From the UHGV virus genome UHGV-0125333: a stretch of 24,351 nt of DNA. The stretch is one strand, 5' to 3'. The notes beneath the pieces were generated by a model. The model made no database searches. It was not told the origin of the DNA and saw only the letters and a program-made list of their open reading frames with translations. A program made the translations under genes and the position numbers. Within the stretch, counting starts at the first letter, position 1. Every line of letters begins with the position of its first letter. Source of the DNA: a virus. Of the stretch, positions 2,008-23,415 are shown piece by piece.

Positions 2008-2805
2008 TTATAGCTCCTTTAATCGAGGCGGTTCTGGTAGAGGCATCCAGTGGGTTACACCGCCAATTGGCTCATCGTCGTCGTACTCCAATGCGGCTAT
2101 ATAGAACCCGTCACGACGAGAATAAGAAATCCCGGACATTACAATGCCATCCGAAACAACAATAATGTCACCCGTTTCTTTCGGCATTCGCTCACTACAG
2201 CTTATCCAACCATCCGGAGTCACCGGAAGCGAGAACGGCAGCACATCTCTGTGAACAAGTTTTTGCTGTGACAGGTTATCCAGAACTTTCTGTACTGCTG
2301 CATCACCGAATACACCAAGCGCATCTGCCATAACTCCTACAACCTGATAAGCCTCAGCGCATACCGTGGATAAACCATCCGGAATTACCGGAGAGTTGCC
2401 GGGTTCTTTAATGTGCAAGCGAGGCTCACCATCTTTTGGTTCAGGCCACTGGCGCTCCATGTTGATCTTCAATTTATCTTCCATAGCAGCGGTAATTTCA
2501 GCATCGCTGATGCCAGCACGGCGCTGTGCATCCCACAACAGGAAATGCATATCAGCCCACTCGCTGAGATCGTCTGGTTCGGCTGCGGCTTCCAGAGCCT
2601 CTTTTGAGAGGTGTTTCAGTGGACCAATGGGGCCAACGCAGCCAAATGTGGAGTCAGACCATTTGGCATGCTCGTGGCGAATCAGTTCGCGTTCCAGTGA
2701 TGCCAGTGCAATTCGTGCCAGTTCCATTTGTTCGCCACGAGTAAGCCCGTTTTCAAGCGGATTTTTAATGAACAATTCAATACGTTCTTTGGTAATAGTG
2801 GTCAT
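2008..2805 (-). CDS. Phage protein with N-terminal dATP/dGTP diphosphohydrolase-like (DUF550) domain and C-terminal DUF551 domain
   Basis: 265-aa ORF with an AAGGAC RBS. The N-terminal half resembles the MazG-like DUF550 family and the C-terminal half (DGWISCSERMP ... GVTHWMPLPEPP) the DUF551 family, a combination common in enterobacterial prophages. Assigned from recall only. Confidence 0.7.
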   Translation of the reverse strand: MTTITKERIELFIKNPLENGLTRGEQMELARIALASLERELIRHEHAKWSDSTFGCVGPIGPLKHLSKEALEAAAEPDDLSEWADMHFLLWDAQRRAGISDAEITAAMEDKLKINMERQWPEPKDGEPRLHIKEPGNSPVIPDGLSTVCAEAYQVVGVMADALGVFGDAAVQKVLDNLSQQKLVHRDVLPFSLPVTPDGWISCSERMPKETGDIIVVSDGIVMSGISYSRRDGFYIAALEYDDDEPIGGVTHWMPLPEPPRLKEL

Positions 2806-2815
2806 TTGTTAGTCC

Positions 2816-3571
2816 TTAAACTGCTAGTTGCAATTGCATTTCAAAGCGGTCGCGTTGTTCACAATACGCAAGAGAACCAGGGCTATTGTGTGCCTCAATC
2901 CGTTCTACCATTAATGCTGCGCGTGTCTCTTTACTTGCAGGTGCATAAGCCCCAGACCAGGCTTTATCAATACCGATGTTTCGAGCGACGTTCGTACTAT
3001 CTGCGCTGGCTAAGGGTAATTTTGTGAATATCAGCGGATTTAACATGCGCAATCCATGTAGTTTCGTAACCGGCTGACCATGCCCATCAACAATGTGACG
3101 AATCAGGTCTTTCATTCTGGCTACCGCAAGAGTTGGGCGCTTTACGTCATAGTCGCCACAACTACCGATAGCCACTCGCGGAAACTCATTGCACAAATGA
3201 ATAAATCGCGCGTCACTTTCATTCATGTGCCACACTGGAACGCCAGCTAGTTTTCCGTGAGGCCACTCATTCAGAAGCGCATCATTTTCCTCCTCTCCGC
3301 CATCAATAATATCCGGGATAATGGCAAAATCGAATCCTGGGTGATTCTTCCAGCGAGCAACAAACTCGTAGTAATCGCTCCAGTCGATTTTGTTTTTGCC
3401 AGCTGCTTTCCAGGCGGTGAATGCACCGTTGTCCAGCGCGAACGACTGACAGTATTCAGCCGCGAGATTGATCTGGCCTGAATGCGCAAAACTGATAAAC
3501 GCATGTCGCCCTTTCCATGCTCTCATTGCGCACGTATCAGGAGTAATAGGCCCACCGTGGTAGTGAATCAT
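2816..3571 (-). CDS. Hypothetical protein (251 aa), family not assigned
   Basis: Long ORF; ATG at 3571 lies 4 nt after the Ea22-like stop and is preceded by an AAGGAG RBS. The track ORF extends 14 codons further upstream. No family confidently recognised. Confidence 0.6.
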   Translation of the reverse strand: MIHYHGGPITPDTCAMRAWKGRHAFISFAHSGQINLAAEYCQSFALDNGAFTAWKAAGKNKIDWSDYYEFVARWKNHPGFDFAIIPDIIDGGEEENDALLNEWPHGKLAGVPVWHMNESDARFIHLCNEFPRVAIGSCGDYDVKRPTLAVARMKDLIRHIVDGHGQPVTKLHGLRMLNPLIFTKLPLASADSTNVARNIGIDKAWSGAYAPASKETRAALMVERIEAHNSPGSLAYCEQRDRFEMQLQLAV

Positions 3572-3572
3572 C

Positions 3573-3980
3573 TCACTCTCCTTTGATGCGAATGCCAGTA
3601 GCGCGGATTGCATCGATGACTTCAGAAACTTTGTATGCCATTACCGTTTGGTAATCATCGTGAAAATCTGTTCGATGAAGCATGCTGCTACGTTCCGGGA
3701 GCAGTATTTCCCGCGCTTCCAGTTCTGCAATGCGCTTTTTTGCTGCTTCCAGTTCATCCAGTAATTCCAGCACGGTAGCCGGATTAGCCTTGGCAACAAA
3801 ATCCCGGACTGGCTTACAATCAATCTCCGCAATGGGTTGATACGATGTGTAGCCATGCTGTCTTGTATAACTACCGTGACGAATAACGAAAAAATCACCA
3901 TTTATTTTTTTAGCCTGCCACTTATCTTCACCGGCTTTCTCTGCCGCTTCACGCAGTGCCTGAGAGTTAATTTCGCTCAC
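3573..3980 (-). CDS. Ead/Ea22-like protein
   Basis: 135-aa ORF starting MSEINSQALREAAEKAGEDKWQAKKINGDFFVIRHG with a coiled-coil-like ELLDELEAAKKRIAELEA segment; resembles the Ead/Ea22-like prophage family. Confidence 0.7.
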   Translation of the reverse strand: MSEINSQALREAAEKAGEDKWQAKKINGDFFVIRHGSYTRQHGYTSYQPIAEIDCKPVRDFVAKANPATVLELLDELEAAKKRIAELEAREILLPERSSMLHRTDFHDDYQTVMAYKVSEVIDAIRATGIRIKGE

Positions 3981-4198
3981 TTCGAACCTCTCTGTTTACT
4001 GATAAGCTCCAGATCCTCCTGGCAACTTGCACAAGTCCGACAACCCTGAACGACCAGGCGTCTTCGTTCATCTATCGGATCGCCACACTCACAACAATGA
4101 GTGGCAGATACAGTCTGGTAGTTCAGACGACGCATTTTTATTGCTGTGTTGCGCTGTAATTCTTCAATTTCTGATGCTGAATCAATGATGTCTGCCAT
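3977..4198 (-). CDS. TraR/DksA-family C4 zinc-finger protein
   Basis: 73-aa ORF with CxxC ... CxxC spacing (CCECGDPIDERRRLVVQGCRTCASC) typical of phage TraR/DksA zinc fingers; its stop overlaps the downstream start (ATGA). Confidence 0.8.
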   Translation of the reverse strand: MADIIDSASEIEELQRNTAIKMRRLNYQTVSATHCCECGDPIDERRRLVVQGCRTCASCQEDLELISKQRGSK

Positions 4199-4780: not shown

Positions 4781-4943
4781 ACAGCCCCCCCCATTTATTA
4801 TTTATCTCCTCAGCCAGCCGCTGTGCTTTCAGGGGATTTCGGATTACAGAAAGGCCGGGAAATACCCAGCCTCGCTTTGTAACGGAGTAGACGAAAGTGA
4901 TTGCGCCTACCCGGATATTATCGTGAGGATGCGTCATCGCCAT
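4758..4943 (-). CDS. Lambda orf60a-like small protein
   Basis: 61-aa [33 protein letters not shown]... whose start overlaps the exo stop as in lambda. Confidence 0.65.
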
Positions 4944-5614
4944 TGCTCCCCAAATACAAAACCAATTTCAGCCAGTGCCTCGTCCATTTTTTCGATGAAC
5001 TCCGGCACCATCTCGTCAAAACTCGCCATGTACTTTTCATTCCGCTCAATCACGACATAATGCAGGCCTTCACGCTTCATGCGCGGGTCATAGTTGGCAA
5101 AGTATCAGGCATCTTTTCGCGTCACCCACATGCTGTACTGCACCTGGGCCATGTAAGCCGATTTTATTGCCTCGAAACCACCGAGCCGGAATTTCATGAA
5201 ATCCCGGGAGGTAAACGGGCATTTCAGTTCAAGGCCGTTGCCGTCACTGCATAAACCATCGGGAGAGCAGGCGGTGCGCATATTTTCGTCGCGATAGATG
5301 ATCGGGGATTCAGTAATATTCACGCCGGAAGTGAATTCAAACAGGGTTCTGGCGTCGTTCTCGTACTGTTTTCCCCAGGCCAGCGCCTTAGCATTAACTT
5401 CCGGAGCCACACCGGTGCAAACCTCAGCCAGCAGGGTGTGGAAGTAGGACATTTTCATGTCAGGCCACTTCTTTCCTGAGCGGGGCTTTGCTATCACGTT
5501 GTGAACTTCTGAAGCGGTGATGACGCCGAGCCGTAATTTGTGCCATGCATCATCCCCCTGTTCGACAGCTCTCACGTCGATCCCGGTACGCTGCAGGATA
5601 ATGTCCGGTGTCAT
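4934..5614 (-). pseudogene. exo: Lambda exonuclease (Red-alpha) interrupted by a single in-frame TGA at codon 170
   Basis: The N-terminal 169 codons (5108..5614) match lambda Exo and end RKDA-TGA (5105..5107). The same frame continues without further stops for 56 codons ([20 protein letters not shown] ... GFVFGEQWR) to the normal stop at 4934..4936. Lambda has TGG (Trp) at this codon. Confidence 0.8.
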
Positions 5615-6396
5615 GCTGCCACCTTCTGCTCAGTGGCTTTCTGTTTAAGGAATCCAAGAGCTTTCACTGCTTCGGCCTGTGTCAGTTCTGACGATGCGCG
5701 AATGTCGCGGCGAAATATCTGGGAACAGAGCGGCAATAAGTCGTCATCCCATGTTTTATCCAGGGCGATCAGCAGAGTGTTAATCTCCTGCATGGTTTCA
5801 TCGTTAACCGGAGTGATGTCGCGTTCCGGCTGACGTTCTGCAGTGTATGCAGTATTTTCGACAATGCGCTCGGCTTCATCCTTGTCATAGATACCAGCAA
5901 ATCCGAAGGCCAGACGGGCACACTGAATCATGGCTTTATGCCGTAACATCCGTTTGGGATGCGACTGCCACGGCCCCGTGATTTCTCTGCCTTCGCGGGT
6001 TTTGAATGGTTCGCGGCGGCATTCATCCATCCATTCGGTAACGCAGATCGGATGATTACGGTCCTTGCGGTAAATCCGGCATGTACAGGATTCATTGTCC
6101 TGCTCAAAGTCCATGCCATCAAACTGCTGGTTTTCATTGATGATGCGGGACCAGCCATCAACGCCCACCACCGGAACAATGCCGTTCTGCTTATCAGGGA
6201 AGGCGTAAATTTCTTTCGTCCACGGATTAAGGCCGTACTGGTTGGCGACGATCAGCAATGCGATGAACTGCGCATCGCTGGCATCACCTTTAAATGCCGT
6301 CTGGCGAAGAGTGGTGATCAGTTCCTGTGGGTCGACAGAATCCATGCCGACACGTTCAGCCAGCTTCCCAGCCAGCGTTGCGAGTGCTGTACTCAT
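5611..6396 (-). CDS. bet: Red-beta single-strand annealing recombinase
   Basis: 261-aa [62 protein letters not shown]... matching lambda Bet; its stop overlaps the exo start. Confidence 0.95.
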
Positions 6397-13039: not shown

Positions 13040-13480
13040 ATGAAAAAACTAACCTTTGAAATTCGATCTCCAGCACATCAGCAAAACGCTATTCACGCAG
13101 TACAGCAAATCCTTCCAGACCCAACCAAACCAATCGTAGTAACCATTCAGGAACGCAACCGCAGCTTAGACCAAAACAGGAAGCTATGGGCCTGCTTAGG
13201 TGACGTCTCTCGTCAGGTTGAATGGCATGGTCGCTGGCTGGATGCAGAAAGCTGGAAGTGTGTGTTTACCGCAGCATTAAAGCAGCAGGATGTTGTTCCT
13301 AACCTTGCCGGGAATGGCTTTGTGGTAATAGGCCAGTCAACCAGCAGGATGCGTGTAGGCGAATTTGCGGAGCTATTAGAGCTTATACAGGCATTCGGTA
13401 CAGAGCGTGGCGTTAAGTGGTCAGACGAAGCGAGACTGGCTCTGGAGTGGAAAGCGAGATGGGGAGATCGGGCTGCATGA
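13040..13480 (+). CDS. ninB: NinB (Orf) recombination mediator
   Basis: From the ATG at 13040: MKKLTFEIRSPAHQQNAIHAVQQILPDPTKPIVVTIQERNRSLDQNRKLWACLGDVSRQ..., 146 aa matching lambda NinB. Confidence 0.9.
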   Translation: MKKLTFEIRSPAHQQNAIHAVQQILPDPTKPIVVTIQERNRSLDQNRKLWACLGDVSRQVEWHGRWLDAESWKCVFTAALKQQDVVPNLAGNGFVVIGQSTSRMRVGEFAELLELIQAFGTERGVKWSDEARLALEWKARWGDRAA

Positions 13481-14004
13481 CTATCAAATCAAATACGCCA
13501 GCACACGACAAGGACTGCTGGCAAACGCCGCTTTGGCTTTTTGATGCACTGGATATTGAGTTTGGATTCTGGCTGGATTCGGCAGCGAGCGACAAAAATG
13601 CTCTGTGTGCTCACTGGCTAACTGAGGCCGACGACGCGCTCAATTCTGAGTGGGTAAGCCACGGTGCAATCTGGAATAACCCACCGTACAGCAATATCAG
13701 GCCGTGGGTGGAAAAAGCTGCTGAGCAGTGCATACAACAGCGACAGACGGTAGTTATGCTTGTGCCAGAGGATATGTCAGTCGGATGGTTCAGCAAGGCT
13801 CTGGAGAGTGTCGACGAAGTTCGCATTATCACTGATGGACGGATTAATTTTATCGAACCATCGACAGGGCTGGAGAAGAAGGGAAACAGCAAAGGCTCCA
13901 TGCTGCTGATTTGGCGACCGTTCATCAGTCCTCGACGGATGTTTACTACCGTATCCAAAGCGGCATTGATGGCGATCGGGCAGGGCGTCAGGAGGGCGGC
14001 ATGA
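13477..14004 (+). CDS. Phage Dam-family N6-adenine DNA methyltransferase
   Basis: ATG overlaps the ninB stop (ATGA). Contains the NPPY catalytic motif ([11 protein letters not shown]) and occupies the ninC/ninD slot between ninB and ninE. Confidence 0.85.
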
Positions 14005-15845: not shown

Positions 15846-16370
15846 TTATTGTTTAACCCATAATAATTCATTGACATTGAATCCCAACTTTTGAGCGGTT
15901 CGCACATAGTCTGCTTTTACTTTATCTGGAATAGTTGGGGTCCTTGCCAGAATCCATAGGTATTCTCTGTTCGGACCACTGACAAGAGCATACTTATACT
16001 CATCATCCAGTTTGATTACATTATAGCCACCATAGAAGGGGCCAAAAAACGAAACCTTCAATGCTGCAGTTTTAGTATCTCCAGTAAAGTATGCTTTACC
16101 TTCGCTCTCGCTCCATTTATTTTTCGTTGGATCGTATCCACGGTTAAGTACACGAATCCCTCCGTCGTTCCGTTTTCCATAAGTAGCGCTGACCTGTTCC
16201 AGACCACGTTCGAACCGGTTCTCGAGGCGAGCTATTTCATACCATTTTCCGAGGTAGCGGTTGGCGTCAAAATTTGTAATCGGCTGCACACCTTTAGGTG
16301 GTGTCGGGGCCTTACATGCTATAAGAGTGAAAGAGAGTGCAATGCCAGTCAACACAGGCCATAACTTCAT
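15846..16370 (-). CDS. Bacterial lipocalin (Blc-like) outer-membrane lipoprotein
   Basis: 174-aa ORF with signal peptide and lipobox (FTLIAC) and lipocalin motifs (NFDANRYLGKWYEIARLENRFERG ... KVSFFGPFYGGYNVI) paralleling E. coli Blc; a paralogue, not blc itself. Confidence 0.85.
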   Translation of the reverse strand: MKLWPVLTGIALSFTLIACKAPTPPKGVQPITNFDANRYLGKWYEIARLENRFERGLEQVSATYGKRNDGGIRVLNRGYDPTKNKWSESEGKAYFTGDTKTAALKVSFFGPFYGGYNVIKLDDEYKYALVSGPNREYLWILARTPTIPDKVKADYVRTAQKLGFNVNELLWVKQ

Positions 16371-16562
16371 AATAAATCCTGTACTTTTGATAGTTGAGAG
16401 TAAGTATGAAAGATAGATGATTACGACCGATCACTTAAAGAACTTTCATACTATATTAGGAATAGTCCATAACAGAAAAATTGTCAGTGATGACGCCAGA
16501 AAGGCAATTTATTCCGTGCACTACACAGTTTATGTGTTAATGAATTAGTCAAGGGGGAGAAT

Positions 16563-17522
16563 ATGATAAAAAAACCTGTGATTGGAATCAGCGGTTGTTT
16601 GGCCGGTTCTGCTGTTCGTTTTGATGGTGGTCACAAAAGAGCTGACTTTTTAATGGACAAATTAGTGGAATGGGTAACATTCAGACCAGTATGTCCGGAA
16701 ATGGCTATAGGGCTGCCAGTTCCGCGTCCTGCTCTACGTCTTGTGCGCTCGATGCAAGGAAATATACGGATGTGTTTCAGCCACGACCAGAATGAGGATG
16801 TGACAGAGAGAATGACAGAGTTTAGTCGTTCTTATATGGACAAATTAAAGGATGTATCGGGGTTTGTGGTTTGTGCTAAATCTCCCAGCTGTGGCATGGA
16901 GCGCGTGCGTGTCTATGATGAAAATGGTAATCGAGGTCGTAAAGATGGAGTGGGACTATTTACGAGCACTTTGATGGAAAAGTTTTCCTGGCTACCGGTT
17001 GAAGAGGATGGGCGATTACATGATCCAGTGCTTCGTGAGAATTTTGTTGAAAGAGTTTTTGCTTTGCATGAGCTCAATCACCTTTACAAGGAGAAATTAT
17101 CAAGAAGAGAGTTATTAGCTTTTCATAGTCGTTATAAGCTTCAGTTGTTGGCGCATAGTCAGGCAGGCTATAAAGATATGGGACCATTTGTGGCTGCAAT
17201 ACACGAGTGGGCGGACCTTGAATCATACTTTGAGGTGTATCGTGATAAGCTGATGGCGATTCTCAGAAAACCTGCATCACGTAAAAATCACACGAATGTG
17301 TTGATGCATATACAGGGGTATTTTAGTAACTACTTAAGTACACGCCAGCGTAAAGAGTTGAGCGAGGTTATACTTAACTATCGTTCTGGCACATTACCTC
17401 TTCTTGCGCCGTTGACTCTGCTGAAGCATTATCTGGGTGAGTATCCTAATGATTACTTGCTTACACAGAATTACTTCGATCCCTATCCGGACGAACTGGC
17501 TCTAAGACTGACGGTAAATTAA
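16563..17522 (+). CDS. DUF523-DUF1722 fusion protein (TudS-like Cys-rich N-terminal domain plus YbgA-like C-terminal domain)
   Basis: 319-aa ORF with strong RBS (AAGGGGGAGAAT). N-terminus MIKKPVIGISGCLAGSAVRFDGGHKR with further conserved Cys (PVCPEM, SPSCGMERV) as in the DUF523 family. Assigned from recall. Confidence 0.75.
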   Translation: MIKKPVIGISGCLAGSAVRFDGGHKRADFLMDKLVEWVTFRPVCPEMAIGLPVPRPALRLVRSMQGNIRMCFSHDQNEDVTERMTEFSRSYMDKLKDVSGFVVCAKSPSCGMERVRVYDENGNRGRKDGVGLFTSTLMEKFSWLPVEEDGRLHDPVLRENFVERVFALHELNHLYKEKLSRRELLAFHSRYKLQLLAHSQAGYKDMGPFVAAIHEWADLESYFEVYRDKLMAILRKPASRKNHTNVLMHIQGYFSNYLSTRQRKELSEVILNYRSGTLPLLAPLTLLKHYLGEYPNDYLLTQNYFDPYPDELALRLTVN

Positions 17523-17873
17523 TTGTATGCGATATCATCCAAAAGGATGAGTTCCTGCATGCAGGATATTTACAATCGTAAAAACTACACTATGATACCC
17601 AGAGTGTCAGTTTGTATAAAAACTCTGTTTACTCTGAAGAAACAATTGAGATGCAACTTAAAGTTGGTAAACATGCCAGTCAAAATATATAATATTATGA
17701 TTCCACGCAGCTATATATAATATAACAGATTGGTTTAATAATTTGTCTTTGTGAGTTAAATACATAATTTTATACTTGTGATGCAATGAAATTTTCCTTA
17801 TTGTTGAACTGGCGAATATTGATTTTCCACCTATACTTACCTGGTGTAACCCCAATGATATCAGGTGGATAAT

Positions 17874-18605
17874 ATGCCATACATATGTTCTATCATTTTG
17901 GTGTTGAACTCGTTTGATGTCCGAATTGGTAAAGAAGATATTTTGTTTAAAAAAGGAAGTGCTGTTCTCATTGATTACAATTTAAAAGATTTTTTTTCAT
18001 CAAATATAGATCATGTAATGATCGTAGATGTTGAAGAGAAAACAGTTAATGATTTCTTTAAAAGCAACACACTCTCACCTTTTTCTGTAAGAAGGTTTTA
18101 TCCGGCATACTTGATGGTGGAATGTGAAGATTTTTCATTGTTAAAGAACTTGATTGCATGCTTGAATTGTGATGGCAGAACTGTGGATTTTGTTAGAAAT
18201 CAAATATCACTTGCATGTCTTGCTATCTTATCTTCAGAGAAAATAGTGCAAAGTTTTTTATTTGGATGTCTTAATAGTTTAGGAAGTAAAGTTAAGGCTA
18301 TTATTCACACGGATATATCTGCAGCATGGAGACTTTGTGATATATCTTCAAGACTGTATCTGAGTGAAAGTCTGTTAAAAAGAAAATTAAAGCACGAAGG
18401 CTTATCATTTAGTAAGTTAATTCTTGAAGAGCGAATGGTGATGGCGGAAAGGTTATTAAGCTACAATTTATATTCTGTTGGAAAAGTTGCTGAGATATGC
18501 GGTTATGAAAACACGTCATATTTTGTAAGTGTTTTCAGAAGGTATTTTGGTGTTCCTCCCCATCAATATTCATCAAGATTTTTTTTAGAAAAAGACATGA
18601 TGTAA
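17874..18605 (+). CDS. AraC/XylS-family transcriptional regulator (AppY/EnvY-like)
   Basis: ATG at 17874 (track ORF starts at GTG 17865). C-terminal AraC-type HTH (VGKVAEICGYENTSYFVSVFRRYFGVPPHQY); N-terminus MPYICSIILVLNSF parallels AppY MDYVCSVVFICQSF. AT-rich gene with a long AT-rich upstream region. Confidence 0.85.
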   Translation: MPYICSIILVLNSFDVRIGKEDILFKKGSAVLIDYNLKDFFSSNIDHVMIVDVEEKTVNDFFKSNTLSPFSVRRFYPAYLMVECEDFSLLKNLIACLNCDGRTVDFVRNQISLACLAILSSEKIVQSFLFGCLNSLGSKVKAIIHTDISAAWRLCDISSRLYLSESLLKRKLKHEGLSFSKLILEERMVMAERLLSYNLYSVGKVAEICGYENTSYFVSVFRRYFGVPPHQYSSRFFLEKDMM

Positions 18606-19966: not shown

Positions 19967-20103
19967 AATCTTAACTACAATATGATTCATTTTGATGATT
20001 GTTTCATAAGGAACAGTGAAGTAAGATCTAAGAGGAGTTAAATTTTATACAGTATAATCATAATATTGCAGCAAGGTGGTTATAATTGAAAGAATATTTA
20101 GAT

Positions 20104-21561
20104 ATGAATACATCTCATGTAAGAGTTGTTACTCATATGTGTGGGTTCCTGGTTTGGCTCTATAGTCTTTCAATGTTGCCACCAATGGTTGTAGCATTGT
20201 TTTATAAAGAAAAAAGCCTGTTCGTTTTCTTTATAACTTTCGTTATATTTTTTTGCATTGGTGGCGGAGCGTGGTATACAACTAAGAAATCTGGCATTCA
20301 ATTACGTACCCGTGATGGGTTTATTATAATTGTAATGTTTTGGATTTTGTTTTCTGTTATTAGTGCATTCCCTTTATGGATTGACTCAGAACTTAATTTA
20401 ACGTTCATTGATGCTCTGTTTGAAGGGGTTTCTGGAATAACAACAACAGGAGCAACTGTAATTGATGATGTTAGTTCATTACCTCGGGCATATTTGTACT
20501 ATCGGTCACAGTTAAATTTTATAGGTGGTTTAGGAGTTATTGTTCTGGCGGTTGCTGTATTGCCATTATTGGGTATTGGTGGTGCAAAGCTTTATCAGTC
20601 AGAAATGCCGGGGCCATTTAAGGATGACAAACTCACTCCCCGCCTGGCCGATACGTCACGGACACTGTGGATAACTTATTCTTTATTAGGTATTGCTTGT
20701 ATTGTCTGTTATAGACTTGCAGGAATGCCTTTGTTTGATGCTATTTGTCACGGGATTTCCACAGTTTCGCTTGGTGGTTTCTCAACTCATAGCGAGAGTA
20801 TCGGATATTTTAATAACTATTTGGTTGAGCTGGTGGCTGGTTCTTTTTCCCTGCTATCGGCTTTCAACTTCACTCTTTGGTATATTGTTATTAGCAGGAA
20901 AACGATAAAACCTTTAATCAGAGATATTGAACTTCGTTTCTTTCTGTTAATAGCCTTAGGGGTGATCATTGTTACCTCTTTCCAGGTCTGGCATATAGGT
21001 ATGTATGACTTGCATGGAAGTTTTATTCATTCGTTTTTTCTTGCCAGCTCCATGCTCACTGATAATGGTTTAGCTACGCAGGATTATGCAAGTTGGCCCA
21101 CGCACACGATAGTGTTTTTGCTGTTGTCAAGTTTCTTTGGGGGATGTATAGGTTCAACTTGTGGTGGAATTAAGTCACTTCGATTTCTTATACTTTTCAA
21201 ACAAAGCAAACACGAGATAAATCAGCTTTCTCATCCCAGAGCGTTGTTGAGTGTAAATGTAGGAGGGAAGATAGTTACAGATCGTGTAATGAGGTCTGTA
21301 TGGAGTTTCTTTTTTCTTTATACTCTCTTCACGGTGTTTTTTATACTGGTGTTAAATGGTATGGGATATGATTTTCTTACATCATTTGCAACAGTGGCTG
21401 CATGTATTAATAATATGGGATTAGGTTTTGGGGCTACTGCATCGTCATTCGGAGTGCTTAATGACATTGCAAAATGTTTAATGTGCATAGCTATGATTCT
21501 TGGTCGCCTTGAAATTTATCCTGTTATTATATTGTTTTCAGGTTTTTTTTGGCGCTCCTAA
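20104..21561 (+). CDS. trkG: TrkG/TrkH-family K+ uptake membrane protein
   Basis: 485 aa from the ATG at 20104 (MNTSHVRVVTHMCGFLVWLYSLSMLPP...), multi-pass membrane protein matching Rac-prophage TrkG as recalled; AT-rich coding sequence. Confidence 0.88.
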   Translation: MNTSHVRVVTHMCGFLVWLYSLSMLPPMVVALFYKEKSLFVFFITFVIFFCIGGGAWYTTKKSGIQLRTRDGFIIIVMFWILFSVISAFPLWIDSELNLTFIDALFEGVSGITTTGATVIDDVSSLPRAYLYYRSQLNFIGGLGVIVLAVAVLPLLGIGGAKLYQSEMPGPFKDDKLTPRLADTSRTLWITYSLLGIACIVCYRLAGMPLFDAICHGISTVSLGGFSTHSESIGYFNNYLVELVAGSFSLLSAFNFTLWYIVISRKTIKPLIRDIELRFFLLIALGVIIVTSFQVWHIGMYDLHGSFIHSFFLASSMLTDNGLATQDYASWPTHTIVFLLLSSFFGGCIGSTCGGIKSLRFLILFKQSKHEINQLSHPRALLSVNVGGKIVTDRVMRSVWSFFFLYTLFTVFFILVLNGMGYDFLTSFATVAACINNMGLGFGATASSFGVLNDIAKCLMCIAMILGRLEIYPVIILFSGFFWRS

Positions 21562-21698: not shown

Positions 21699-22490
21699 AT
21701 GAGCGAGAAATTAAAGATAGTCTATCGCCCATTACAAGAATTGTCACCGTATGCGCACAACGCCAGGACGCACAGCCCTGAGCAGGTGGCACAACTGGTA
21801 GAAAGTATTAAGCAATTCGGCTGGACTAATCCGGTGCTGATTGACGAAAAGGGCGAAATTATTGCGGGTCACGGTCGTGTTATGGCGGCTGAAATGCTCA
21901 AAATGGATTCTGTTCCGGTCATTGTTCTGTCTGGCCTGACGGATGAGCAGAAAAAGGCGTACCGCCTGGCAGATAATCGCCTGCCGATGAATGCTGGCTG
22001 GGATGAAGATCTGTTGCGGATGGAGCTGTCGGACCTAATCAATGCTGATTTTGATGTCTCCCTGACAGGCTTCATCCCGACAGAAATTGATGAACTGTTG
22101 ACGGATGTTTTGCCCGGTACAGGAAATGAGGAGGAGCCGTATACGACGAAAATTGATACGCCTGTTTATGAGCCGTCGGGCGGTAAACCGGATATCAGTG
22201 AACTGTACGACGATACGAAAACTCAGGAGCTGATCAGCCGGATACGTTCGGCGTCCCTTGAGCCTGATATTGAGAAATTCCTCCTGTGTGCGGCAGAACG
22301 TCACACGGTGTTTAATTTCAGCAGAATTGCGGACTATTACGCTCACGCCCCCTCTGAAATTCAGTGTTTTTTCGAGGAGTCGGCGCTGGTGATCATTGAT
22401 TATCAGCAGGCTATTGAAAATGGATTTGTCCGGATGACGCAGCGCATGGTGGAGATCATGCATGGTGGTGAGGAGGAGGAATATGCGTGA
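21699..22490 (+). CDS. ParB N-terminal-domain (ParB/Srx-fold nuclease-like) protein
   Basis: 263-aa ORF with a ParB-box-like region (VLIDEKGEIIAGHGRVMAAEMLKMDSVPVIVL) and an acidic C-terminal tail. It sits where ynaK lies in Rac, downstream of trkG. Confidence 0.8.
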   Translation: MSEKLKIVYRPLQELSPYAHNARTHSPEQVAQLVESIKQFGWTNPVLIDEKGEIIAGHGRVMAAEMLKMDSVPVIVLSGLTDEQKKAYRLADNRLPMNAGWDEDLLRMELSDLINADFDVSLTGFIPTEIDELLTDVLPGTGNEEEPYTTKIDTPVYEPSGGKPDISELYDDTKTQELISRIRSASLEPDIEKFLLCAAERHTVFNFSRIADYYAHAPSEIQCFFEESALVIIDYQQAIENGFVRMTQRMVEIMHGGEEEEYA

Positions 22491-23415
22491 TGATTTTTGC
22501 GCCTTTATTCTGACTCACGGGCGACCGGACAAAGTTCTGACTTACCGGACGTTGCGTCGTGCTGGCTATACCGGGAAAATTTTTATCGTTGTTGATGATG
22601 AAGATAAGACACGGAATCAGTACATGGCTGAATTTGGTGAACAGGTGCTGGTGTTTTCCAAAGCCGATATCGCCAGTCGTTTTGACGAAGCCGATAATTT
22701 CTGTGACCGCCGCTCAATTTTTTACGCCCGTAATGCCTGTTTCGACCTGGCAAAACTGGTCGGGTGTAAATACTTCATTCAGCTCGATGATGATTATCAC
22801 GAGTTCCAGTTTCGGGTGGATCGCAACTATGACCAGGCCTATTTTCCGATAAGGAAACTGGATGCGATCCTTTCTGAAATGCTGGCGTACTACGAATCAA
22901 TACCTGCTCTTTCCATCGCTATGTCGCAGGGCGGGGATTTTCTTGGTGACAATGGCGGCCATGCTTCGTGGGTGAAACGCAAGGCAATGAACAGCTTTAT
23001 CTGTTCGGTTGATCGACCGTTCTCATTCATGGGGCGCATTAACGAGGATGTGAATACGTACACGAATCTCGGTCGCTGTGGTGAATTGTTTATGACGATC
23101 GGTGCTGTCCAGTTAGGGCAGAAACAGACGCAGAAAAACAGCGGCGGAATGACCGAGCTGTATCTGGATTCCGGAACCTACGTTAAAAGTTTTTACTCCG
23201 TCATGTATGCGCCGTCGTGCGTAAAAATCTCACTGATGGGTGCCAGCCATAAACGCATTCACCATCAGGTCACCTGGAACAACGCTGCAGTAAAAATCCT
23301 TCACGAAAAATACAGGAAGAAGACACCCTGCATATCAATGGGGGTGACAAATGATTCCGTATTCGAAAGTCGAGTCTCTGGCAGCGTGCCGGATGACTGC
23401 ACAACAAATCGCTGA
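22483..23415 (+). CDS. GT-A-fold glycosyltransferase-like protein (GT2-like signature), translationally coupled to the ParB-like gene
   Basis: ATG at 22483 overlaps the upstream stop by 8 nt. N-terminal FILTHGRPD ... IFIVVDDEDKT and the later ARNACFDLAKLVGCKYFIQLDDDYHEF block resemble the two nucleotide-sugar-binding motifs of GT-A enzymes. It sits where ydaY lies in Rac. Confidence 0.65.
   Translation: MRDDFCAFILTHGRPDKVLTYRTLRRAGYTGKIFIVVDDEDKTRNQYMAEFGEQVLVFSKADIASRFDEADNFCDRRSIFYARNACFDLAKLVGCKYFIQLDDDYHEFQFRVDRNYDQAYFPIRKLDAILSEMLAYYESIPALSIAMSQGGDFLGDNGGHASWVKRKAMNSFICSVDRPFSFMGRINEDVNTYTNLGRCGELFMTIGAVQLGQKQTQKNSGGMTELYLDSGTYVKSFYSVMYAPSCVKISLMGASHKRIHHQVTWNNAAVKILHEKYRKKTPCISMGVTNDSVFESRVSGSVPDDCTTNR

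Follow-up and report, generated by a model that had tools for sequence, protein, structure and literature searches.

A predicted stand-alone phage DpdA and its EaA-type neighbour in the early left region of a lambdoid prophage

The UHGV virus genome UHGV-0125333 was analysed as one strand of 24,351 nucleotides, and the whole of this stretch is referred to below as the window. It covers the left arm of a lambdoid prophage together with a portion of the right arm. The genes studied here are a dpdA-like gene of 251 amino acids (aa) at 2816..3571 and an eaA-type accessory gene of 265 aa at 2008..2805, both on the minus strand. An earlier note on this DNA, made without database searches, had placed the two open reading frames (ORFs) at these positions with 10 nt between them. 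Both points hold: the spacer on the minus strand is exactly 2806..2815 when read from the sequence, from the TAA stop codon of dpdA (2816-2818) to the ATG of eaA at 2805. The note had described the 251-aa gene as the downstream one, and this order is reversed, as the 251-aa gene is transcribed first (3571 to 2816) and the gene with the domains DUF550 and DUF551 second (2805 to 2008).

The 251-aa gene begins with the ATG at 3571 and has, as the note had said, a strong ribosome-binding site, AGGAG at a spacing of 6 nt. A longer start at 3613, which would give a 265-aa ORF, was rejected, being not conserved. The homologues all begin MIHYHGG, and the start of the 251-aa form is therefore taken as the true one. 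The ribosome-binding site of eaA, AGGA, overlaps the dpdA stop codon, and the 10-nt spacing is identical in phages BTP1 and S135.

A comparison with PHROGs matched residues 1-248 of the 251-aa protein to phrog_887, 'queuine tRNA-ribosyltransferase', with an E-value of 2.6e-101. In a tblastn search of deposited phages the protein showed 98% identity to an Stx1a-converting phage and 92.4% identity, over all 251 aa, to gp23 of BTP1 and to SPN3UB, where the RefSeq product is likewise 'queuine tRNA-ribosyltransferase'. SfI and Vibrio phage Athena1 both came out at 67%, the DpdA of Pantoea phage MED16 at 38.5% (E=3e-27), and HK106 and Salmonella phage 7-11 both at 35%. In a BLASTP comparison with CAjan DpdA, which has been validated by genetics, the E-value was 7e-9, with LDNGAF aligned to LDSGAF and SADSTN aligned to SCDSSS. 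With hhalign, the profile built from 52 members of the family (33-93% identity) matched one built from 28 CAjan-type DpdAs at a probability of 99.0% and E=2.7e-18. Databases contain over 7,700 relatives of the protein, and at the 50% identity level the family counts 784 representatives, so it is not the product of a chance ORF. The earlier note had offered a weak visual impression of a tRNA-guanine transglycosylase (TGT) or DpdA, and this impression proved correct on the strength of PHROG 887, the 92% identity to listed DpdAs and the CAjan profile match.

The same note had called the protein unassigned. This stands for Pfam, NCBIfam, PADLOC and the sequence searches of the PDB (phmmer and a search with the family profile), none of which gave a usable match, and for PGAP, which labels it 'hypothetical protein'. 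It does not stand for PHROGs (phrog_887) or for the RefSeq phage records of BTP1 and SPN3UB. Additionally, a record of 1,719 bp that bears the name 'Staphylococcus phage SA 1298 Kay' (OR850331.1) encodes a protein 92.4% identical to dpdA; this is probably a mislabelled or contaminant sequence.

The AlphaFold2 model of the protein (pLDDT, predicted local distance difference test, 83.8; pTM, predicted template modelling score, 0.83) alternates strands and helices in a TGT-like (beta/alpha)8 barrel. The earlier note had suggested looking for such a barrel with conserved Asp residues, and both are present. Among 52-54 diverse family members, down to 33% identity, D47, H172, D191 and S192 are invariant, and D87, H115, G136 and G173 are conserved in at least 90%. 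In the model each of these conserved residues lies at the end of a consecutive predicted strand.

The codon of D47 (3431..3433, minus strand, as for the other codons given here; motif LDNGAF) encodes the predicted general acid/base, equivalent to Asp95 of Salmonella (S.) Montevideo DpdA, and that of D191 (2999..3001; motif SADSTN) encodes the predicted nucleophile, equivalent to Asp256. D87 (3311..3313; motif IIPD) is a candidate base-recognition Asp, to be compared with Asp130 of bacterial DpdA, and H115 (3227..3229; motif PVWH) is a candidate equivalent of His181. In the S. Montevideo enzyme Asp95 serves as general acid/base and Asp256 as nucleophile, and the mutations D95A and D256A abolish guanine exchange (PMC10164549). 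The order of the residues in the window protein matches Asp95, Asp130, His181, Gly206-207 and Asp256 of that enzyme, and F51 matches Phe99, four residues past the acid/base Asp. When aligned with the CAjan family, D47 and D191 correspond to D63 and D206, and H115 corresponds to the invariant H132. CAjan D105 is paired by hhalign with D90 and not with D87, an offset of three residues; the order of D87 and H115 fits bacterial DpdA.

In the catalogue of Hutinet et al. 2019 the largest group of phage dpdA genes is that of the stand-alone ones, and in the similarity network of that study the singletons from gamma-proteobacterial phages form a cluster of their own (PMC6884629). Supplementary Data 1 of the same paper lists BTP1, SPN3UB, SfI, HK106, Athena1 and 7-11 as DpdA-only, with no preQ0 or G+ synthesis gene (PMC6884629). 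As near-identical copies from BTP1 and SPN3UB are in this list, the gene has in effect already been catalogued. DpdA is essential for dPreQ0 in CAjan DNA (PMC6884629). We conclude that the 251-aa gene is probably a stand-alone ('singleton') phage DpdA of the DpdA1 type, belonging to the 'DpdA-only' gamma-proteobacterial phage cluster. The predicted product is a DNA-guanine transglycosylase, inserting 7-deazaguanine, in the form of a minimal TIM barrel with no zinc (Zn) site.

A TGT-like enzyme could also leave phage DNA alone and act on host tRNA (queuosine), on another nucleic acid or on a protein as Cap10 does, or the gene could be a decayed remnant. We find this unlikely. Decay is hard to reconcile with a catalytic Asp pair and pocket residues that are invariant in so large a family (784 representatives at 50% identity). 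Neither a QueC-like Cap9 nor a CD-NTase partner adjoins the gene in the window or is found among the immediate neighbours in the related loci, which are replication proteins and DNA methyltransferases and not tRNA genes. Furthermore, identity is 9% to Cap10 against 15% to DpdA, and the nearest validated relatives, those of the CAjan and MED16 lineages, act on DNA or are linked to it.

No preQ0 genes were found in the window by tblastn with CAjan FolE, QueD, QueC, QueE and YhhQ, and the orthologous phages carry no preQ0 synthesis genes either, which points to dependence on a host precursor. E. coli makes the 7-deazaguanine base by the FolE-QueD-QueE-QueC pathway. This supply is sufficient there: 9g DpdA alone gave 790 dPreQ0 per 10^6 nt of plasmid DNA in E. 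coli. Among distant relatives of the gene (about 50% identity; Acidobacteria, Paraburkholderia and other metagenome-assembled genomes), QueC/QueE adjoin in two loci (L052 and L057), FolE, QueD and QueE in one (L054), QueE in another (L048) and a YhhQ-like transporter in a further one (L033). These neighbours support a 7-deazaguanine function for the whole family, and they also mean that the short Zn-less form is not confined to singleton contexts.

From these relationships we infer the substrate, the product, the time of expression and the biological role as follows. By analogy with TGT and bacterial DpdA, D191 would attack C1' of a deoxyguanosine in duplex DNA and displace the guanine, giving a covalent enzyme-DNA intermediate, while D47 would act as general acid and then as base. 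A 7-deazaguanine base, either preQ0 or a close derivative such as 7-amido-7-deazaguanine (ADG), would resolve the intermediate and leave dPreQ0 or dADG at a sequence motif. The expected level would be low, roughly 0.02-0.3% of G and restricted to the motif, because low levels are given both by 9g DpdA alone and by the two measured singleton-DpdA phages (50 dADG per 10^6 nt in 7-11 and 354 in MED16). A search of the minus strand between positions 1300 and 4300 gave no sigma-70-like promoter, and the hairpins within dpdA and eaA are weak, of 5 bp only, which is consistent with transcription in the leftward early operon. Lying between exo/bet and xis/int, the gene would be expressed after induction or infection, during replication of the phage DNA. 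Its likely role would be to mark phage DNA or to protect it against some nucleases.

Several points weigh against reading the gene as an active DpdA. Pfam, NCBIfam and PADLOC are all silent on it; for Pfam this is uninformative, since the validated DpdAs of CAjan and MED16 have no Pfam match either. Only 60 residues follow D191, with no conserved Cys or His among them, so that the protein has neither the structural Zn site nor the large C-terminal insertion seen in TGT and bacterial DpdA. The tested relatives closest to this clade share just 35-38% identity with it, and we found no experiment in the literature on a BTP1-type or temperate-phage singleton DpdA. The low-level dADG of MED16 gave no visible protection against the restriction enzymes tried. 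Both 7-11 and MED16 carry dADG and not dPreQ0, and neither is known to have a hydratase, which leaves the inserted base uncertain. Finally, the DNA of the singleton phage Orion is unmodified, although the host of this phage lacks the preQ0 pathway (PMC6884629).

A more specific role would be counter-defence or self-marking against a particular host system, for example by mimicking the mark of a Dpd-type island, and not general protection against restriction. Salmonella phages often have an orthologue of the gene, and the dpd island occurs in Salmonella serovars (PMC10164549). Bacterial Dpd likewise makes a low, motif-specific modification, at less than 0.1% of G (PMC10516641). Against this, bacterial DpdA needs DpdB and ATP while the 251-aa protein stands alone, PADLOC gives no Dpd match, and the dpdA family is spread over many genera. 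We judge this role to be quite improbable. A wider proposal, also unlikely to be right as it stands, is that the Zn-less 251-aa singleton clade is a distinct specialist and not a weak version of the CAjan-type enzyme. Drawing on queuosine synthesis in the host, it would put another base at few motifs, maybe in the lysogen chromosome too; ADG is the candidate, being the base in both singleton phages measured. The mark would be an epigenetic or anti-defence signal, such as one for evading Dpd, and not a bulk shield against restriction enzymes.

The genes around dpdA follow the lambdoid early left arrangement. In the direction of transcription, on the minus strand, they are bet (5611-6396), exo (about 4934-5614), several small genes, a DksA/TraR zinc-finger gene (3977-4198), an Ead/Ea22-like gene (3573-3980; PF13935, E=2.6e-17), the 251-aa gene, the 265-aa gene, an ea8.5-like gene (1612-1911), xis and int. 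The earlier note had put the dpdA-eaA pair in the place of ea22. This is not so, as the Ead/Ea22-like gene is still there immediately upstream of dpdA, and the pair lies between the ea8.5-like and the ea22-like gene. The TGA of the Ead/Ea22-like gene ends 1 nt before the ATG of dpdA, an arrangement that BTP1 has too, and this distance suggests translational coupling.

The 265-aa protein consists of an EaA N-terminal module (aa 1-40), DUF550, a linker and DUF551, and Pfam bears out the DUF550/DUF551 fusion proposed in the earlier note. DUF550 (PF04447; aa 42-137; 2395..2682, minus strand) is matched over positions 1-96 of the 97 in the profile with E=1.1e-41 and 141.4 bits against a cut-off of 23, and DUF551 (PF04448; aa 199-260; 2026..2211, minus strand) with E=7.3e-14. 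Domain-wise PHROG matches were likewise found. The acidic residues E69, E82, D85 and D92 are present, so the catalytic residues, whose absence the note had named as a possible objection, are not lacking. They align with Glu/Asp residues of the protein of Acinetobacter phage SH-Ab 15497, and from what is known of the MazG family we take them to be metal-binding. The SH-Ab 15497 protein itself has a weak PF04447 match (33 bits) and shares 34% identity with the window DUF550 over 71 residues. PF04447 has its present name from this DUF5664-DUF550 protein, which converts dGTP and dATP to monophosphates in a 2-aminoadenine pathway (PMC12884076, PMC8342488). Judged by its sequence, the window DUF550 is a MazG-like, all-alpha (deoxy)nucleoside triphosphate ((d)NTP) pyrophosphohydrolase domain.

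The first 40 residues of EaA are a module common to many EaA proteins, found in 1,250 E. coli genomes, and the gene at the matching position of BTP1 is named eaA and annotated in the long form. The module recombines independently. In E. coli O121 RM8352 (L087, where 20292-20411 corresponds to window 2686-2805) the NCBI pipeline calls the first 40 EaA codons a pseudogene fragment and starts a 234-aa DUF550 protein at Met27; in the window the ORF is unbroken.

Whether dpdA and DUF550 form a two-gene functional module, as the earlier note had proposed, was examined in two sets: 80 related loci, taken as one-genome-per-species contigs, and 5,426 complete E. coli genomes. In such a module the DUF550 domain would alter the purine (d)NTP pool, lowering dGTP or feeding the precursor, and so favour DpdA, in parallel to the MazZ/DUF550 and PurZ proteins of Z-genome phages. 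The two genes do share a strand and a 10-nt spacing, with an identical arrangement in BTP1, and in SH-Ab 15497 the hydrolysis of dGTP and dATP by DUF550 is part of a pathway of base replacement. In the E. coli set this dpdA variant was found in 204 of the 5,426 genomes (about 4%), Stx-converting phages included; 172 genomes have the junction of dpdA with the EaA N-terminus, and 138 of the 204 have the full order dpdA-EaA-DUF550, with DUF550 directly downstream. The copies are nearly clonal (188/204 with at least 99% identity), so this linkage reflects shared descent. Five of the 218 E. coli dpdA sites are on plasmids, possibly phage-plasmids.

In the other species the pairing is rare. Pfam scans of the immediate neighbours found DUF550 in 1/69 downstream positions, that of BTP1, and in 0/70 upstream positions, and tblastn found it within 6 kb of dpdA in 4/80 loci. 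In Salmonella phage S135 the gene after the same dpdA encodes an EaA that shares the N-terminus but has no DUF550, and in phage Eeyore an exonuclease gene takes the eaA position. Seen from the other gene, this DUF550 type is present in 511 E. coli genomes, 138 with an adjacent dpdA and 373 (73%) without. Moreover, DpdA works after replication, on DNA and with a free base (PMC10516641), which makes a dNTP step unnecessary. DUF550 was therefore rejected as a conserved partner. The proposed functional module is not supported, and we hold the cooperation of the two proteins to be very unlikely; their adjacency is a lineage-specific gene order and not an obligate or conserved partnership, and the 265-aa gene is a separate, mosaic EaA-type accessory gene.

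The gene upstream of dpdA was also considered as a conserved partner. It overlaps dpdA by 4 nt in many of the related loci, but the upstream proteins are heterogeneous (methyltransferases, DnaB, P, NinB, SSB and Ead/Ea22), and it was rejected as well. DNA methyltransferases make up 18 of the 139 immediate neighbours of related dpdA genes, the rest being heterogeneous and including replication proteins.

Elsewhere in the prophage, the nin region holds a gene for a phage Dam-type N6-adenine DNA methyltransferase (13417-14004, plus strand; PF05869, E=9e-65). Two further plus-strand genes directly precede that of the terminase small subunit, one for a ParB_N-domain protein (21699-22490; phrog_620) and one for a protein resembling TET-associated glycosyltransferases (22462-23415; PF20691, E=8e-35; phrog_842, 'beta-glucosyl-HMC-alpha-glucosyltransferase'). 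The ParB_N and PF20691 genes are a second candidate DNA-modification pair; no TET/JBP gene was found among the window ORFs scanned. The prophage may thus carry up to three DNA-modifying functions.

The lambda-type exo gene has an in-frame TGA at 5105-5107 (minus strand), which divides it into 169 aa and, still in frame, a C-terminal remnant of 48 aa. Lambda Exo has Trp at this position, and the related RM8352 prophage has an intact gene for a 225-aa exonuclease. The Red exonuclease of the window prophage is probably inactive. Two low-GC regions (15846-18605 and 20086-21561) hold cargo, namely a lipocalin (Blc-like, minus strand), a DUF1722/2-thiouracil-desulfurase protein, an AraC-type regulator and a 491-aa TrkH-family cation transporter. 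The TrkH-family gene lies between the lysis genes and the ParB-like gene, an arrangement resembling that of trkG in the Rac prophage.

What the analysis yields is chiefly a correction of the annotation and not a new system, the TGT/DpdA reading being already in the literature. Stand-alone DpdAs are the least understood group of phage DpdAs, and the purpose that a single DpdA without a Zn site serves in temperate enterobacterial phages is a question about the family at large and not one raised by the window. If active, such an enzyme would place host-dependent 7-deazaguanine marks, which may alter how sensitive these prophages are to restriction enzymes, CRISPR and the 7-deazaguanine glycosylases described of late. 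Inducible lysogens of E. coli and Salmonella offer an easy genetic system for studying its role.

Compared with known systems, the window EaA has in common with the DUF5664-DUF550 protein of SH-Ab 15497, the MazZ analogue of Z-genome phages, the acidic residues of PF04447. It differs in having no DUF5664 and no purZ or datZ neighbour, its DUF550 being fused to the EaA N-terminal module and DUF551.

For DpdA, the bacterial enzyme of the Dpd restriction-modification system (S. Montevideo, PDB 7ui4) has 413 aa against 251 in the window protein; the latter lacks its structural Zn site and its 128-residue Ins8/C-terminal subdomain. Membership of the bacterial Dpd/TGT family (PF01702) is not indicated by any Pfam TGT or PADLOC match. 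Neither a DpdB ATPase nor a dpd cluster lies beside the gene, whose neighbours are Ead/Ea22-like and EaA, and a ParB_N protein was seen in 1/70 upstream neighbours of the related loci.

The DpdA1 proteins of CAjan and 9g, validated for the insertion of dPreQ0 / dG+, are homologous TIM barrels, and their Asp pair, the residue equivalent to H115 and the Gly-rich strand are kept in the window protein. CAjan DpdA has 306 aa, with extra N- and C-terminal segments, and is encoded beside folE, queD, queC and queE; about 32% of G is modified (PMC6884629). As a shorter, lone protein, the window enzyme would be expected to give a much lower level of modification than in CAjan. The DpdAs of MED16 (about 260 aa) and 7-11 belong to the same family at 38.5% and 35% identity, and these phages also have no preQ0 genes and use the host precursor; they are lytic, and their DpdAs are in another sub-clade.

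The closest systems are BTP1 (gp23, SIU02687 / YP_009639228) and SPN3UB (YP_007011024), which are in group 3, 'DpdA-only', and carry their 92.4% identical gene in the early-left ea region, with no phage preQ0 genes. In BTP1 the gene has the Ead/Ea22-like gene upstream and eaA 10 nt downstream, just as in the window. The only differences from these two phages are the host, an E. coli lambdoid prophage being compared with Salmonella P22-like or lambdoid phages, and the domain make-up of the adjacent EaA.

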